Shown piece after piece: positions 10,636 through 55,929 of a stretch of DNA of 64,000 nucleotides (position 1 is the first letter of the stretch; each line of letters opens with the position of its first letter). The translations under genes were made by a program, and so were the position numbers. The stretch comes from a virus (taxonomy: Duplodnaviria > Caudoviricetes). Under the pieces are notes generated by a model that was given only the letters and a program-made list of their open reading frames with translations, ran no database searches and had not been told where the DNA came from. The stretch covers positions 1-64,000 of IMG/VR virus record IMGVR_UViG_3300013121_000027; one strand, given 5' to 3'.

Positions 10636-11127
10636 TCAATTTAAGGTGAAACGATAATGTATGCCAGTCTTGTAGTTTGGATTATTCAACCCCTTTGAGC
10701 TTGTTTTAAAAGCTTCACTTCTACAAGAAATAGAACAAAAAGGATTTTCTGGATTTCTTACTTGCTTCTCATAACGTTTGAATAATTTAAAACATTGAGC
10801 ACAAATCCAATCTTTTCGTGTATCCTGTCCTCTTCTGCATGTTCCTACTTGTCCTCCAGAAGAAGAATTGTATCCTATTTTAGGATCACATGATTTAAAA
10901 TAAGATATCCAAAAAATTTCACGATCATTTAAGATTTCATCTTCGCATTCTTCGATTAACTCAATTTTGAAAAATTCTCTACCGTATTTTCTTATTGCTC
11001 GTGAAATAGGCATTTTTTCGCTTTTAGATGTACAATGCCTACTGAATCTTTCGTTTAATGGACGTATCGTTTGTCCAATATATACTTTATTATTTGACAA
11101 ACAAGTTATTTTGTAAATATTTCCCAT
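10636..11127 (-). CDS. GIY-YIG homing endonuclease
   Basis: NIYKIT...VYIGQT...R...E motif plus C-terminal Zn ribbon; TGATATAAT 6 nt before ATG. Confidence 0.9.
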   Translation of the reverse strand: MGNIYKITCLSNNKVYIGQTIRPLNERFSRHCTSKSEKMPISRAIRKYGREFFKIELIEECEDEILNDREIFWISYFKSCDPKIGYNSSSGGQVGTCRRGQDTRKDWICAQCFKLFKRYEKQVRNPENPFCSISCRSEAFKTSSKGLNNPNYKTGIHYRFTLN

Positions 11128-18192: not shown

Positions 18193-19203
18193 ATGGGTTC
18201 CTCTTCAACCACTGCTGATGATCTTGCTGCACGTGCAGCTTATCGTGCAGCTACTGGCACAAGCTATGCTTACAGTGCAACCATGCACGCTGTTCCCTTT
18301 CATGATCGTAAGATTCATGAATCTCTTGATCCTAAGCGTTTGAATACTCTTGGCAAGCAGATTCGCGAATGTTTCGATTCTATCGAGCATCCCCTTACCG
18401 TTCCTGTTGTATTTGGTTTTGATCAAACCGGATCTATGGGTAATGGTCCTCGCATCATCCAGGAGAAGCTTTCTACATTGAAGGGGCTTACCCTTCGTGC
18501 TGGTATGCCTGATGTTCAGCTTTGTTTTGGTGCATATGGTGATGCCCAGAACCATGAAATCGCCCCTTGTCAAGTTGGTCAATTTGAGTCCGGTCTTGAA
18601 ATGGAAGACTGGCTGAATAATCTTTTCCTTGAAGGTAATGGTGGCGGAAATGGTGGAGAGACCGCAGGTCTTTTTCTCTATTTCCTTGCTAACTATACCG
18701 ATCTCGATTCCGTTAACAAGCGTGGCAAGAAGGGCTATGTCTTTCTTACTGGAGATGAGATTGCTCTTCCCGTGACGCGCGCTGAGCTCAAAACCTATAT
18801 CGATGAAGATTCCGAAACTGATTATACCATCCAGCAAGTAATTGAGATGGTTACCAAGAAGTTTGAAGTTTTCTTTTTCTTGGTTGAGAATGGTGCCGCT
18901 CGTGCGCAGGGTTCTTTGAAGTTTTGGAGTGATCTTCTTGGCAATGATCACGTTATTGTTGTTGAGGATCTCAATAACATTAGTGAACTTGCTGCAACCC
19001 TTCTCGCCAATGAAGAGGGTATGATCACCAGTATTGATCATGCTACCGATCTTCTCAAGGCTGAAGGCGCTGCTGGCACGGCTATCGAAGTTGTTTCCAA
19101 GACCCTTGCTCATCGTGGCGTAGCAAGTACTACTGCCTCTGTTGCTACTACGACTGGTGGTACTCTTGCTGCCACTACAGCAGCGGATACGACTGACCTT
19201 TAA
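18193..19203 (+). CDS. vWA-domain protein
   Basis: DQTGSMG MIDAS motif, GGGNGGE, FLTGDE. Confidence 0.85.
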   Translation: MGSSSTTADDLAARAAYRAATGTSYAYSATMHAVPFHDRKIHESLDPKRLNTLGKQIRECFDSIEHPLTVPVVFGFDQTGSMGNGPRIIQEKLSTLKGLTLRAGMPDVQLCFGAYGDAQNHEIAPCQVGQFESGLEMEDWLNNLFLEGNGGGNGGETAGLFLYFLANYTDLDSVNKRGKKGYVFLTGDEIALPVTRAELKTYIDEDSETDYTIQQVIEMVTKKFEVFFFLVENGAARAQGSLKFWSDLLGNDHVIVVEDLNNISELAATLLANEEGMITSIDHATDLLKAEGAAGTAIEVVSKTLAHRGVASTTASVATTTGGTLAATTAADTTDL

Positions 19204-19344
19204 TTTCTTAATTAATGATTGTGGTCAGGCACCCGGTAATGATTTGATAGTTATAAGGGCTCGAACTGACTTTTGTCGATGACTACAGGTAACCACAATT
19301 ATTTTATTTAAGGAATTTATTTATGTCTCATGCCCGTGTAAGTA

Positions 19345-19977
19345 CTATTTTTTAAGCCATTCAATAGCCGCATGCAAATAATCAATATTATCTTTAAACA
19401 TTCCAAGACCCATATTGCAGGCATTGCATAGTAATCCTCTTACGCAATTGCGACAACCTTTTTTACAACATTTGTGATCATGATCAATAGCCCATTGATT
19501 ATCTTTACCGCCAGGTTTTTCATTACCACAAATTCCACATTGTTTCAATTGAGCATTATACCATTCAATATTTAAACCACGTCGAATCAATCGTTGATAC
19601 TTGCTTAAATATTCCCTATAATCTTTATCTTTTTTGTAACGAGGTTTACGCATTAAACGATTTTTGTTTGCAATAAAATTGGCGTGATGCATTTTGCATT
19701 CTAAAGACTTGCAAACCGGTAAAATTGTGTTGATTTGTTTTTGATGGAATGTACTTCCACAGTAAGTGCATTGAAAATCATACCAAATTTCACCATATCG
19801 ACTTCCGTCTTCTCTTTTATGTGAGTCATGAGCAATACCCAGTTGTCTTCTTTTTTTAAGTCGTTGATTTTTACCAATTCTGGATTTAAGTTTACATTCT
19901 TCACAACTTGGTATTCTTCCACGAGGCTTTGTCCTCGTCACCTCATTTGTTTTACATTGATCACAATAATAAATCAT
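19345..19977 (-). CDS. Endonuclease VII-family homing endonuclease
   Basis: CGICG...IDHDH...VRGLLCNACNMGLGMFKDN; TGGTACTAT 6 nt before ATG 19977. Confidence 0.9.
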   Translation of the reverse strand: MIYYCDQCKTNEVTRTKPRGRIPSCEECKLKSRIGKNQRLKKRRQLGIAHDSHKREDGSRYGEIWYDFQCTYCGSTFHQKQINTILPVCKSLECKMHHANFIANKNRLMRKPRYKKDKDYREYLSKYQRLIRRGLNIEWYNAQLKQCGICGNEKPGGKDNQWAIDHDHKCCKKGCRNCVRGLLCNACNMGLGMFKDNIDYLHAAIEWLKK

Positions 19978-20012
19978 ATTTAAATAGTACCATTTAAAAG
20001 GCGAAAAAATAG

Positions 20013-21386
20013 ATGTCGCACGCAAAAATTTCATGTGTTATTGATTTGTCCTTTGGTGATTCCGGCAAGGGCGCACACGTAGATTATCTCTGTCGTAATG
20101 ACAATGCTCGTCTCGTTGTTCGCTTTAATGGTGGAAACCAAGCAGGTCACAATGTTGTGACTCCAGAAGGCTTGCATCATTGCTTCCATCTCTTTGGCAG
20201 TGGAAGCTTTATTCCTGGAGTAAATACTTATCTTGCTCCTACTGTTCTTGTAAATATTCAGGCGCTTCTAAAAGAAGTTCATGATCTTAACAAATACGTT
20301 ATTGCTCCTCTCCTTCCGAGAATGTTTATTCATGAAGATTGCCCTATCATTACTCCATATCATATTTATATGAATAGGTATATGGAAATTCTTCGTGAAG
20401 ATAGTCCTCATGGTTCTTGTGGGCAGGGGATTGGTGCTTGTGCAGCAGATCTTGAAACACTTCATCCTGCTCTTATTCTTAGGATAAGAGATATTAGGAA
20501 TCCTGAAATCTTGAAGAAGAAGCTTCAAGCTCTTTATGACAGATGTGTCTTTGATTTTCCTCTTCATCTTCTAACTGATGAGCAAGCAAAAAGAATTGGG
20601 ATTTATACCGATTATCTTGAAGAAAACTGGATAAATCAGCTCACAAACTATTATGTAAATTCTTCTTCTCTTCTTCAAATCGTAGATAATACCTTCTTTG
20701 CTAATGCTCTTGAACAATATGAACATATTGTATTTGAAGGAGCACAAGGGGTACTTCTTGATGAGTGGTATGGTTTCCATCCTTATACTACTTGGAGTAG
20801 TACTAATCTTCGCAATGTCCATGCTATATTTGATCAGTATAATTATGCTGGTGAATACCATAATTATGGTCTTCTCCGAGCATATACAACTCGTCATGGT
20901 GCTGGTCCATTTCCAACAGAAGATTCAACATTGCTTGAATTTCTTAACGATGAATACAATCCAACGAATGAATGGCAACAAGACTTTAGGGTAGGACATT
21001 TTGATCCTTCTCTCGTAATCTATGCTATTCGTATGGCAAAAGATCCTGAATCTAAATGGCGCGGAATTGATAGCCTTGTTATTAGTAATGTGGATAGAAT
21101 GTTTGGTCTTCATCCAAAAATTGCATCACATTATCATATAACTTTTGGACAAAAAGATATTAATCATCAAGCAGAAAAAGCTTCTCTCTTAATGCATATG
21201 AATCTTTCTAACTATTCAGGAGTTACTCATGATGTACTGAGCTTCGAAAATATGATGTCTTATATTAAAGATATCATTGATGAAGTTGGTAGATTTGTTT
21301 CTCCCATTGGAGCAGTTTCTATTGTTGGTGTTGGTCCAACTTCAAAAGATAGAATCGTTATTAATACTCCTATTTACAAATCCTGA
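20013..21386 (+). CDS. purA: Adenylosuccinate synthetase-like protein (PurA family)
   Basis: GDSGKG, RFNGGNQAGHNV, GSCGQGIG, FEGAQG, TRHGAGPFP. Confidence 0.85.
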   Translation: MSHAKISCVIDLSFGDSGKGAHVDYLCRNDNARLVVRFNGGNQAGHNVVTPEGLHHCFHLFGSGSFIPGVNTYLAPTVLVNIQALLKEVHDLNKYVIAPLLPRMFIHEDCPIITPYHIYMNRYMEILREDSPHGSCGQGIGACAADLETLHPALILRIRDIRNPEILKKKLQALYDRCVFDFPLHLLTDEQAKRIGIYTDYLEENWINQLTNYYVNSSSLLQIVDNTFFANALEQYEHIVFEGAQGVLLDEWYGFHPYTTWSSTNLRNVHAIFDQYNYAGEYHNYGLLRAYTTRHGAGPFPTEDSTLLEFLNDEYNPTNEWQQDFRVGHFDPSLVIYAIRMAKDPESKWRGIDSLVISNVDRMFGLHPKIASHYHITFGQKDINHQAEKASLLMHMNLSNYSGVTHDVLSFENMMSYIKDIIDEVGRFVSPIGAVSIVGVGPTSKDRIVINTPIYKS

Positions 21387-24218: not shown

Positions 24219-24650
24219 TTAATCTCTTTTTCTTCCCATGTAATCTACATTTTTCTCCCTATACTCTTTTCTCCATTGTTTACATAAATTACATCTACAT
24301 TTTTCTTTGTTATACATATGTCCACTTCCATGATTATAATCATCAATTCTATTGTGTCCTCCGCCAAATTCTCCATTTAATTTAGTTTTTAATTCATGAT
24401 GATCTTTACATAGCAATTGACATTTGGTTAATTCTTTTAAATAATCTTTTTTGTTAATCGACCATAGTTTAGATATTGGAAAAGCTTTCGTTTTTGGATT
24501 AATATGATCTATTTCCAATTTCTCTGTCGTTTGACAAATTATACAACAACCTCCTAAAATTTCTATTGATTCTTTTCTTCTTTCATAATATCTTTCTAAG
24601 ATCTTTTTTTTCATATATTCATTATATTGATCTTTATCTTTTAAACTCAT
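24219..24650 (-). CDS. HNH homing endonuclease (paralogue of 16146 and 40291)
   Basis: CIIC..LEIDHINP...KCQLLCKDHH; HG...CRCNLC. Confidence 0.88.
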   Translation of the reverse strand: MSLKDKDQYNEYMKKKILERYYERRKESIEILGGCCIICQTTEKLEIDHINPKTKAFPISKLWSINKKDYLKELTKCQLLCKDHHELKTKLNGEFGGGHNRIDDYNHGSGHMYNKEKCRCNLCKQWRKEYREKNVDYMGRKRD

Positions 24651-26752: not shown

Positions 26753-26785
26753 AGGGGTATCGTCTAACGGTTAAGGCACTGAGCT
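26753..26785 (+). pseudogene. 5' half of a split tRNA-Gln
   Basis: AGGGGTATCGTCTAACGGTTAAGGCACTGAGCT; ends at U33. Confidence 0.8.
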
Positions 26786-27434
26786 ATATTAAATTATAAA
26801 GTTTTGCTCTTTTTCTAACTGCATTATCTGATACTCCAAATATTTTTCCTGCTTGTACAAAATTTGTTGTTTTAAGAATTTTTTCTAACTCTTCTTTTGT
26901 AGGATTAAATTTTCTTAAATGAGATCTTCCAATTTTATTTCTTTCTTTTTCTTCTTTATCTTTTAACTTCTTTTCTAAATTTCTTCCTGCATAGCTTTGT
27001 GTTTGTGTATGACAATTAGGACATAGAATTTGTAGATTTTCTATTCTATGATCATTATATATTCCATTAATATGATCTAATTGTAAAGTTAATGGTTTTC
27101 CATTCCATTCTGATCCAATTTTACATTCATTACATTTTTCTTCTAATATATTATTTTGATAAAGTTTTTTCTTTATCAAATCTCTGTTTGTATATAAAGA
27201 ATTTTCTTTAAAAATATCTTCCCATGGAATCATTATATAACCTCTGGCATGGTTTATATTACTTTTTCCTATTTTGGGTTTTAGTCCAAATTCTTTACAT
27301 GCGTTATGAAATGCTTTAAAATTTCCTCCAGCAGATCTTAATCCTAAAAACTTTAAAGCATCTGAGATACTTTCTGTTTTCTCTATAGCTTCTTTGAGTT
27401 CTTCTCTATTTTGTAGTATACTTCTTGTTCTCAT
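26784..27434 (-). CDS. HNH homing endonuclease inserted in tRNA-Gln
   Basis: CNEC...LQLDHINGIYNDHRIENLQILCPNCH; C-terminal HTH-like GVSDNAVRKR. Confidence 0.9.
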   Translation of the reverse strand: MRTRSILQNREELKEAIEKTESISDALKFLGLRSAGGNFKAFHNACKEFGLKPKIGKSNINHARGYIMIPWEDIFKENSLYTNRDLIKKKLYQNNILEEKCNECKIGSEWNGKPLTLQLDHINGIYNDHRIENLQILCPNCHTQTQSYAGRNLEKKLKDKEEKERNKIGRSHLRKFNPTKEELEKILKTTNFVQAGKIFGVSDNAVRKRAKLYNLI

Positions 27435-27445
27435 TATTATTCCTT

Positions 27446-27527
27446 TGGGGAGTAGCCGACATTGGTATAGGCATCAGCCTTTGGAGCTGACGCGAAAGCA
27501 TTGAGGGTTCGATTCCTTCCTCCCCAA
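27446..27527 (+). tRNA. tRNA-Gln(TTG) with a long variable arm
   Basis: tggggag/ctcccca acceptor, tcagc-ctTTGga-gctga, variable region cgcgaaagcatt. Confidence 0.88.
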
Positions 27528-27567
27528 CTGCTACTTCATGTAGTAATTCTATTTATTGGCAAACTAA

Positions 27568-27596
27568 CATTTAGGGTTCGAATCCTTATACCCCTA
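27568..27596 (+). pseudogene. 3' half of the split tRNA-Gln
   Basis: CATT-TAGGG-TTCGAAT-CCTTA-TACCCCT-A; TACCCCT pairs 7/7 with AGGGGTA at 26753. Confidence 0.8.
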
Positions 27597-54698: not shown

Positions 54699-54899
54699 AT
54701 GAAGAAGAGTACTTTCCAGTATGATATTTGGCTGCGCGATGCCAAGGATTCCGCCAAGGACATTCATGTCACTAAGGATGGTCCCGTAACTATCGAAGCT
54801 ACCAGTCAGGCTGCAGCTCGTGACAAGGCTGTTCGCGCGGTTCCCGCCGAGTTCGAGGATCGTCTGGACGAACTGGACATCCTCGTTCGTGCATTCTAA
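54699..54899 (+). CDS. Small hypothetical protein, GC3-rich; paralogous to the N-terminus of 55417
   Basis: MKKSTFQYDI vs MKKQTYQYTI; similarity runs over about 65 aa. Confidence 0.75.
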   Translation: MKKSTFQYDIWLRDAKDSAKDIHVTKDGPVTIEATSQAAARDKAVRAVPAEFEDRLDELDILVRAF

Positions 54900-54944
54900 A
54901 AAGGATTTTATTCCTTTCTGATTTTTTCTATTACTATTTAATAC

Positions 54945-55454
54945 ATGAAAGAATTTTTATGTACTAAATGCAATCAAATAAAATCAGAATCAGAATTTAA
55001 ATTCTATAAAAGTGGTAAGAAAAAAGGTTCAAGACGCGCTTGGTGTTCTGACTGTGAACGTTCATATCAGAATTATAGATATCATAATCGTCCATTTGAG
55101 AAAAATAGATATGATGAAACTTATAGGCGTAAGGTTTATCTAAAACAGTGTCTTTTTTGGGAATATTTAAGTCTTAATCCATGCGTTAAATGTGGCGAAA
55201 CTAATCCTCTCACTCTACACATAGACCACATAGACCCCCTTAAAAATTCTAAAGTTAAACGGATCGCAAGTATGGTATCAAATGGTACCGCTTGGGCTAC
55301 TGTTTTAAGGGCTATTGAAGAACAGGGCTGTCAAGTTCTTTGTTCAAATTGCCACTCAATAAAAACTCATCAAGACAACAATTCTTGGCGATGGAAGAAA
55401 TGGATATTACTTCAAAATGAAGAAACAGACATACCAATACACGATTTATTATAG
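54945..55454 (+). CDS. HNH homing endonuclease
   Basis: CTKC..CSDC; CVKCG..LHIDHIDP...CQVLCSNCHSIKT; TACTAT 7 nt before ATG. Confidence 0.88.
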   Translation: MKEFLCTKCNQIKSESEFKFYKSGKKKGSRRAWCSDCERSYQNYRYHNRPFEKNRYDETYRRKVYLKQCLFWEYLSLNPCVKCGETNPLTLHIDHIDPLKNSKVKRIASMVSNGTAWATVLRAIEEQGCQVLCSNCHSIKTHQDNNSWRWKKWILLQNEETDIPIHDLL

Positions 55455-55929
55455 AGATCCGCAAGATAACACAAAAGATAAGGCTCTTTCTCCAATTAAA
55501 TCTGTTGAGGCAGTAAGTGAAGAGCATGCTAAGCGAATTGCTATCCGTTCACTCGGTGCTGAGTGGGACGAAAAACTTCATTTTATTGAATTAACAGTTA
55601 AGCCCTTTCTGAGTTCGCCAGAAAAAGCAGAAGCGGCAACGTCTTCCTTGGCTAGCGTTATTGCTGCCGAGGGGGGCAGGACTCCTCCGATCCCTCCACT
55701 TCCTGCTTCTTCTGGCGCTTGGCAAATAACCGAACTTGATAAGCAAGACGGATTTAGGACTTTTGCTGCCGTTAAAGGCATTAGGCTTCTTTATACGTTC
55801 AGTGTTCGCCCTCAAACAAATGGCATAGGCGTTTTTCCGATTAAACAATATTCTATAGATGCTTATCAACATGTCGCTGACGCCGCAGCAGCCGTCTTTA
55901 GTCACTGCATGAAAAACAATATTCGGTAA
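55417..55929 (+). CDS. Hypothetical protein (paralogue of 54699 plus a C-terminal extension)
   Basis: See the 54699 entry. Confidence 0.7.
   Translation: MKKQTYQYTIYYRDPQDNTKDKALSPIKSVEAVSEEHAKRIAIRSLGAEWDEKLHFIELTVKPFLSSPEKAEAATSSLASVIAAEGGRTPPIPPLPASSGAWQITELDKQDGFRTFAAVKGIRLLYTFSVRPQTNGIGVFPIKQYSIDAYQHVADAAAAVFSHCMKNNIR

Follow-up and report, generated by a model that had tools for sequence, protein, structure and literature searches.

The stretch of DNA analysed here (64,000 nucleotides, referred to as the window) comprises the first 64 kb of IMG/VR record IMGVR_UViG_3300013121_000027, a metagenome-derived phage genome of 231,459 bp with direct terminal repeats that is rated complete; the genome has a GC content of 0.38. 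At the locus described, a reversed open reading frame (ORF) for an Endonuclease VII-family protein stands between a gene referred to as U and a gene of the adenylosuccinate synthetase (PurA) family, referred to as PurA-like. Two copies of the terminus of the PurA-like gene flank the endonuclease ORF, one displaced (19323-19343) and one in frame (20013-20033). The features of the locus are collated in Table 1. It appears probable that the endonuclease came in together with the 5' end of a donor PurA-like gene, and that an illegitimate left junction stranded the start of the resident gene as an orphan stub.

Table 1. Features of the U/PurA-like locus, with positions numbered as in the window; promoters were called solely as matches to a sigma-70-like consensus.
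Feature	Position	Strand	Remarks
Gene U, upstream neighbour	18193..19203	+	336 aa; phrog_2971, E 4e-48; conserved
Intergenic region, 119 bp	19204..19322	+	Inferred resident DNA; ends in Shine-Dalgarno sequence AAGGA (19310-19314), 8 nt before the orphan ATG
Orphan stub ORF, MSHARVSTIF*	19323..19355	+	ATG TCT CAT GCC CGT GTA AGT ACT ATT TTT TAA
Endonuclease VII-family gene, 210 aa	19345..19977	-	Stop codon TAG at 19345-19347; own separate ORF
Sigma-70-like promoter, TTGATA-17-TATAAT	19594..19622	+	11/12 match; antisense inside the endonuclease gene, directed towards PurA-like
Extended -10-like element, TGGTACTAT	19975..19992	-	Followed by 6 nt and then the endonuclease ATG
Spacer between divergent start codons, 35 bp	19978..20012		Weak AAGG at 19998-20001, placed 11 nt upstream of the PurA-like ATG
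Working copy of the first seven codons, MSHAKIS	20013..20033	+	Each codon after the ATG unlike that of the stub
Intact PurA-like gene (adenylosuccinate synthetase family), 457 aa	20013..21386	+	PF00709, 205 bits; phrog_1211

The working start of the PurA-like gene reads ATG TCG CAC GCA AAA ATT TCA TGT GTT. An initial annotation, made from the sequence alone, had described an orphan start with a good ribosome-binding site (MSHARVS at 19323) and a restart as MSHAKIS in which every codon after the ATG is changed; the sequence reads as described on both counts. Five of the seven residues are identical in the two copies and the other two are conservative replacements; all six codons after the ATG differ, and nucleotide identity amounts to 10/21 over seven codons and 16/33 over eleven. 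The ribosome-binding site of the stub conforms to the modal one of the phage, AAGGA(G) with a spacing of 5-10 nt. When the whole 231 kb was scanned in six frames (460,000 seven-residue windows), the stub scored 30 against MSHAKIS (BLOSUM62) and no other position reached 25. In a comparison of ORF N-termini with their own upstream 1.5 kb, the stub/PurA-like pair ranked first of 350 (mean 15.5, standard deviation 3.1; z ~4.7), and in a ten-residue form of this echo test the stub scored 32 and six endonuclease-free relatives 11-19. No N-terminal echo was found in the three other endonuclease-bearing relatives (scores ≤12 in the seven-residue test). Chance resemblance is excluded by the echo statistics, and the stub is confirmed as a true homologue of the working PurA-like N-terminus. 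At the nucleotide level, no repeats above shuffled controls were detected flanking this or other nuclease genes, and neither the intergenic region nor the spacer shared a motif with the rest of the genome. A mirror test for C-terminal echoes downstream of genes gave nothing convincing.

The stub ORF extends beyond its PurA-derived part. The C-terminal WLKK of the endonuclease is a conserved domain end, and CTATTTTTT (19345-19353) belongs to the endonuclease; the last stub codons, from about 19344-19350 onwards, overlap the WLKK and stop codons and are antisense to them. Because WLKK is native to the nuclease domain, these codons are not PurA-derived, and by sequence the PurA-derived part probably comprises seven codons and at most nine (19323-19343, possibly reaching 19349). 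The echo in MSHARVS is real; the coordinates of the stub need this one correction. Since stub residue Thr8 is matched by a Thr in the closest PurA-like relative (P0002), the junction is placed no more finely than 19343-19350, and a microhomology junction anywhere within this interval is possible. A long-range stem is also predicted between 19202 and 19318, in which AAUUUCUUAA..AAUGAUUGUGGU, just after the U stop codon, pairs with ACCACAAUUAUU..UUAAGGAAUU. It would sequester the AAGGA site of the stub, at a predicted energy (-28.9 kcal/mol, z -1.85) that is not significant.

The C-terminal part of the endonuclease matches Pfam Endonuclease_7 (PF02945) with 61.8 bits (cut-off 23.6, E 6e-17). Matches were also obtained to phrog_2914, 2633, 307 and 1035, the last spanning residues 5-204. 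Two N-terminal CxxC...CxxC zinc-ribbon modules precede the C-terminal Endonuclease VII (HNH-like) nuclease domain, and this N-terminal half is taken to be the DNA-binding part. In the alignment to T4 endonuclease VII (1E7D), C147/C150/C184/C187 fall on the T4 zinc ligands C23/C26/C58/C61, D165-H166-D167-H168 on D40-H41-x-H43, and N188 on N62, all of them conserved; the protein also aligns to Hpy99I up to a shared C-terminal ...E(W/Y)LKK. The zinc and catalytic residues are invariant in an alignment of the four members of the lineage described below. The designation of an EndoVII homing gene in the initial annotation is borne out by the profile match, the intact active-site residues and the sporadic occurrence at one fixed site, and 19345-19977 is accordingly regarded as a free-standing homing endonuclease gene of the Endonuclease VII family with presumed nuclease activity. 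The locus matched no Rfam intron family at E values up to 1; the hypothesis of an intron was rejected on this ground, and as a separate reversed ORF the endonuclease lies in neither an intron nor an intein. The public gene call (P0121) covers 115 of the 210 residues and misses the zinc-ribbon half, which is why the full protein, used in word-based searches, retrieved next to nothing. As a single query the endonuclease gave domain-level matches only; its true relatives surfaced through a survey of PurA-like loci and an alignment-based scan.

The PurA-like protein matches PF00709 over profile positions 2-414 of 416. Its GDSGKG, GH-motif His, FEGAQG and TRHGAGPFPTE align to bacterial PurA, and its best solved relatives are bacterial PurA proteins. 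SNVD stands in place of the guanine-specificity motif of bacterial PurA, (N/T)KxD. By its sequence the protein is assigned to the PurA family, with inosine monophosphate (PurA) and deoxyguanosine monophosphate (PurZ) as candidate substrates. GDSGKG replaces the GDEGKG form of the motif, and the PHROG family bears a PurZ-type name.

No close relatives were found by blastn against phage genomes. The best identity by tblastn against phages was 33%, a scan of IMG/VR with the PurA-like protein gave at most 36%, and a search of 5.8 billion proteins gave 48% for the best full-length match and 52-63% for short fragments. In the first six IMG/VR loci (L001-L006) the module kinase - U - PurA-like was present; tblastn placed U upstream of PurA-like in all six, and the kinase was matched in five. 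According to its contig gene list the nearest relative (P0002) has a 66-bp gap between U and PurA-like and no endonuclease. An alignment-based scan yielded 80 further loci; U lies upstream of PurA-like in ~75 of these, with gaps mostly of -4 to ~100 bp. Apart from the endonuclease-bearing loci, U runs straight into PurA-like at ~70. Because this gene order is conserved with small gaps, the 809-bp gap in the window is attributed to an insertion. The endonuclease gene is extra relative to a widely conserved arrangement, as had been claimed, and the stub stands where the start codon is expected from the distance to U. At L066 and L069 (around 2983-2990) and at about a dozen loci with a gap of -4, the stop codon of U and the start of PurA-like overlap (GTGA/ATGA), so that any insertion at such a junction must supply a new start; the overlap suggests that the two genes may be translationally coupled.

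Among the loci with U/PurA-like gaps of 600-950 bp, L038 and L068 hold a reversed ORF of ~216-218 aa that matches Endonuclease_7, to which the window endonuclease is 42% and 36% identical, respectively, over its whole length. When IMG/VR was scanned with the endonuclease alignment, three matches and no more were full-length (36-42% identity across the 210 aa): L092, on the L038 contig; L094, on the L068 contig; and L093. All three homologues lie between U and PurA-like, reversed, with the ATG beside the PurA-like ATG; the two start codons overlap in L068, are 14 bp apart in L038, and in L093 have a short spacer between them. Of the 77 matches confined to the nuclease domain, none adjoined a PurA-like gene. 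The U/PurA-like junction thus holds the endonuclease in the window and in L038, L068 and L093, which are three of the 80 loci surveyed, or their contigs; where U runs into PurA-like, the endonuclease is absent. The four giant phages are unrelated and very different: the locus GC content of the three others is 0.43 (L093), 0.58 and 0.70, against 0.38 for the present genome, and their PurA-like proteins are 36-39% identical to that of the window. Sporadic occurrence at one site and in one orientation in such different phages is the signature of what would be a site-specific lineage of free-standing homing endonucleases at the U/PurA-like junction.

In L038, L068 and L093 no stub is present: the element stands just upstream of the PurA-like start codon, and only the window retains a stub. 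Nor is there a PurA-like fragment at the endonuclease tail in any of these three members. Since the three other elements sit upstream of the start codon, the usual site is the very 5' edge of the gene rather than its interior. The initial annotation, which placed the insertion in the start of the PurA-like gene, was therefore right as to the location at the PurA-like start and needs correcting as to the site itself, which is the 5' edge and is free of a stub in three phages. At L046 (2516-3001) a co-oriented HNH_3 endonuclease occupies the same junction; the presence of a different nuclease there marks the junction as an insertion hotspot. The junctions of L012, L016 (=L002), L039, L042 and L070, with gaps of 600-950 bp, have unexplained inserts whose ORFs lack Pfam matches, some of them being CxxC-rich.

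The L068 lineage can be compared with and without the element. The PurA-like proteins of the endonuclease-free L066 and L069, in which the U stop codon overlaps a PurA-like GTG start, are 72-73% identical to that of L068. L068 equals L069 over the last 19 bases of U, to ...CTGT (GACCGGCTGT), after which the two differ, L068 continuing into the cassette; its PurA-like gene has a new ATG and altered first codons (MNKHYIVC versus VTHVIVT) and rejoins the shared sequence at GLGFGDEGKG. The endonuclease-bearing allele of this second lineage likewise has its own rewritten gene start, with the left junction at codon 1 as against codons 7-9 in the window. The right sides of the endonuclease-bearing loci merge in the conserved P-loop coding region, and the combination of variable left junctions with right sides merging there fits co-transfer of the endonuclease and the PurA-like 5' end. 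A candidate echo in L068 (LAGES/MAGES) was rejected; its score lies within the null range, and its right-hand copy is antisense endonuclease coding sequence.

The following course of events would account for the arrangement in the window. A related phage that carried the endonuclease would have been the donor, and break repair or recombination the means of acquisition, with a homologous right-hand crossover within the conserved coding sequence at the PurA-like 5' end. The donor spacer, ribosome-binding site, ATG and first codons (MSHAKIS...) would have entered with the endonuclease and would now head the working gene. The left junction would have been illegitimate, formed no more than a few bases from the endonuclease stop codon and after resident codon 7-9, so that what belonged to the resident, its intergenic region, AAGGA site, ATG and MSHARVS codons, stayed behind as a dead stub. 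That the copies share amino acids and not codons is most likely because each was a real N-terminus, shaped by purifying selection in a lineage of its own, until the two came together. Identity of 10/21 nucleotides and yet 5/7 residues points to two alleles that diverged under selection and not to a recent local duplication. Saturated synonymous divergence between donor and recipient explains the codon differences as well as selection for immunity would, and is the simplest account of them. We infer the direction of transfer, the mechanism of repair and any immunity to cleavage from the arrangement as a whole.

Several hints, each weak singly, point to the stub as the native copy: its ribosome-binding site, its codons, the composition of the PurA-like 5' end and the tails of the other endonuclease genes, which carry no PurA fragment. 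The AAGG of the working start, at 11 nt, falls in the sparse tail of the spacing distribution of the phage and is a weaker site than that of the stub. At the four shared residues the stub codons are ~7 times more typical of the phage than those of the working copy, and the first 60 codons of PurA-like have a GC content at third positions (GC3) of ~0.35, compared with ~0.2 in the rest of the gene, a shift that ranks third of 116 genes; with the lowered codon typicality included, the ranks are 3-5 of 116. The working start lies on the head side of the endonuclease, and the head-to-head arrangement in the three other phages likewise shows the lineage to be consistently joined to the PurA-like start. 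Most probably the stub is a scar from a single irregular left junction and not a built-in part of a cassette. Of the view that the endonuclease gene supplies a duplicate N-terminus, the anatomy, the true homology of the copies and the head-to-head join are upheld; stub and recoding as designed features of a cassette are not.

The following points weigh against co-transfer with a stranded resident start. The N-terminal MSHA tail is not conserved among distant relatives, so that donor and recipient should have been fairly close, yet their synonymous sites look saturated, a combination that is possible and somewhat uneasy. With the best full-length relative of PurA-like at only 48% identity, the native and foreign copies are not assignable by phylogeny. 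The signals from codons and GC3 are weak (p ~0.03-0.04), and divergent codon use is in any case frequent at the 5' ends of genes. A co-conversion tract was not diagnosed in the L068 lineage, where third-position identity over the first 30 codons is low even when the endonuclease-free L066 and L069 are compared with each other. As the other three endonuclease loci are without a stub, the event is known from a single example.

An unlikely alternative, and the one that survives best, is that the element is a self-complementing cassette of endonuclease, spacer, ribosome-binding site, ATG and seven recoded codons that homes after codon 7 of its target. The stub would then be the left homology arm, and the recoding would have been selected against re-formation of the target site and against repeat-mediated excision. 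The endonuclease stop codon abutting the stub without a 3' flank would fit this design, as would the difference of all six codons, the promoter-like sites within reversed nuclease genes that point at the downstream gene, and the halves of a tRNA-Gln gene in the window that flank a reversed HNH gene together with a complete replacement tRNA-Gln. The three other lineage members, however, lie upstream of the start and have no stub, and the left junction of L068 is at codon 1; an insertion point inside the gene, with a stub, is for these reasons not a property of the lineage. Selection is, moreover, not needed, as saturated synonymous divergence is estimated to give four different codons at the four shared residues in ~15% of cases. 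It is doubtful that phage homing endonucleases invade needed genes, without intron or intein, as a cassette with an outward promoter, ribosome-binding site, start and recoded codons. If this were true, the recoding would have been selected to block self-cleavage and repeat-mediated loss, and the same design would serve PurA-like and tRNA genes.

Less probable still is a reversal of roles, in which the stub is the donor fragment carried at the endonuclease tail of the cassette and MSHAKIS is resident, or in which the stub is a working upstream mini-ORF that tunes expression of PurA-like or the endonuclease. Without close relatives the direction is not provable, the stub keeps a strong ribosome-binding site, and the predicted stem can sequester that site. 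The fold is not significant, however, no other lineage member has a PurA-like fragment at its tail, and it is the stub and not the working copy that has the codons and ribosome-site spacing preferred by the phage.

A local duplication, in which the first 21-27 bp of the gene were copied as the endonuclease inserted (as a target-site duplication or by a slip of repair synthesis) and the copies then drifted, is very unlikely. Insertions are commonly flanked by direct duplications, and the two copies here do share one orientation and bracket the insert; but 11 of 21 bases differ, almost all synonymously or conservatively, a functionless stub would not keep its amino acids, and a repeat at the nucleotide level is not detectable. 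Chance resemblance, or a chimera assembled from endonuclease-free and endonuclease-bearing strains, would suit a similarity of only seven residues on a metagenomic contig, but is extremely improbable given the first rank among 350 pairs and the lack of a comparable match in the genome-wide scan, a match that begins at an ATG behind a canonical ribosome-binding site at the expected distance from U, and a stub/endonuclease junction with no shared sequence to mislead an assembler.

In the window as a whole, at least eight homing-type nuclease genes (including one Endonuclease VII and one GIY-YIG gene) and 12 tRNA genes were counted; HNH profiles matched at six places, four of them at or above threshold. 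The promoter inside the endonuclease gene is one of eight plus-strand matches of at least 11/12 in 231 kb. At a threshold of 10/12, six of 58 plus-strand matches fall inside four reversed ORFs resembling homing endonuclease genes (2.2 kb in all), compared with 0.55 expected (~11-fold). The further sites within reversed ORFs are at 24311, 24417 and 24531 (minus-strand ORF 24219-24650), 27294 (HNH gene 26784-27434) and 11094 (GIY-YIG gene 10636-11127), and these promoter-like sites point at a downstream tRNA or protein gene. The insert may thus also supply transcription for the downstream PurA-like gene. Ahead of the GIY-YIG gene at 11127 stand TGATATAAT, TTAAAT and ATG, with a spacing identical to that of the extended -10-like element of the endonuclease gene, which suggests that both mRNAs are leaderless.

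Split tRNA-Gln halves (26753-26785 and 27568-27596), with acceptor strands that are complementary by eye (AGGGGTA/TACCCCT), flank the reversed HNH gene (26784-27434, minus strand) and a complete tRNA-Gln (27446-27528). The HNH gene ends directly against the 5' half of the tRNA-Gln, with its stop codon reading CTA on the plus strand, just as the endonuclease stop codon abuts the PurA-like stub; the complete tRNA-Gln lies 11 nt from the HNH start, and positions 34-47 of the old tRNA-Gln are seemingly missing. A second N-terminal echo lies at 54699-55929, where a 66-aa ORF (54699-54899) resembles the first 64 residues of a 170-aa ORF at 55417 (36% identity, E 3e-13), with a co-oriented HNH gene (54945-55454) between them. 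Relatives elsewhere include both proteins of ~66 aa and proteins of ~168 aa, and the case is ambiguous between a displaced N-terminal fragment and a tandem paralogue. L010 and L011 gave weak, partial matches (26% identity, E 1e-5) inside a 617-aa ORF, which were uninformative as to the ancestral form of the gene.

The closest precedent is the C-terminal duplication caused by mobile ORFs (mORFs) in mitochondria. Duplicated gene termini accompany mORFs in Allomyces macrogynus atp6, Glomus atp6, atp9, cox2 and nad3, Rhizopus atp9 and Mortierella cox2; the mORF brings a foreign C-terminal gene segment, the native C-terminus stays as a remnant, and the atp6 copies share 63.5% nucleotide versus 91% amino-acid identity (PMC3630166). 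The Glomus atp6 element encodes a LAGLIDADG endonuclease (PMC3630166), unlike the Endonuclease VII-type element of the phage. In the phage, too, an endonuclease ORF sits in a protein gene without an intron and the copies are similar as proteins and diverged as DNA; on the preferred reading, a foreign copy would likewise have become the working end and the native end would have been left as a remnant. Unlike the mORFs, the phage element duplicates the N-terminus and not the C-terminus, involves only 7-9 codons, and has an endonuclease gene that is reversed and, to judge from its sequence, separately expressed rather than fused in frame.

In Aeromonas phage Aeh1, the nrdA gene split by mobE ('genes in pieces') is said by Friedrich et al. 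(2007) to have both halves expressed and assembled into the enzyme. There, as here, a free-standing endonuclease gene lies in a phage metabolic gene without an intron and function is kept; unlike in Aeh1, all that the window retains of the 5' piece is a relic of seven codons, whose role has passed to a replacement start. A replacement gene end is also carried, within the attachment site (attP), by integrative elements that target tRNA or protein genes; these use integrases and short identical core repeats. The phage element resembles them in that the invaded gene is kept intact by a supplied duplicate of the displaced end, and differs in that its enzyme is a nuclease, its process presumably recombination-dependent and its repeats diverged. 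The free-standing endonuclease genes of T4 belong to the GIY-YIG and HNH families. In intronless homing by the Seg and Mob endonucleases of T4-like phages, flanking sequence is co-converted from the donor and the invader may bring promoters that affect neighbouring genes (PMC2988022). Like those genes, the present nuclease gene lies between conserved genes and occurs sporadically among relatives. Duplication of the end of a neighbouring gene is not described in this review of T4 mobile elements, and the stem 'duplicat' occurs nowhere in its text (PMC2988022).

The comparison defines a lineage with a double zinc ribbon and an Endonuclease VII domain that has a fixed address, the 5' edge of PurA-like in a module common to many large phages, and the conserved P-loop coding region beside this address is an obvious candidate for the target site. 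Annotation pipelines will miss relics such as the stub, as the gene call on 115 of 210 endonuclease residues illustrates. If the preferred origin holds, the stub would be a rare physical scar of homing and co-conversion that marks the end of resident DNA and, roughly, the position of the break. Replacement of gene ends, so far described for mitochondrial mobile ORFs, would then extend to phages and to N-termini: a selfish element could carry a new gene start from one phage to another, which would add to the ways in which endonucleases give rise to mosaic genes.

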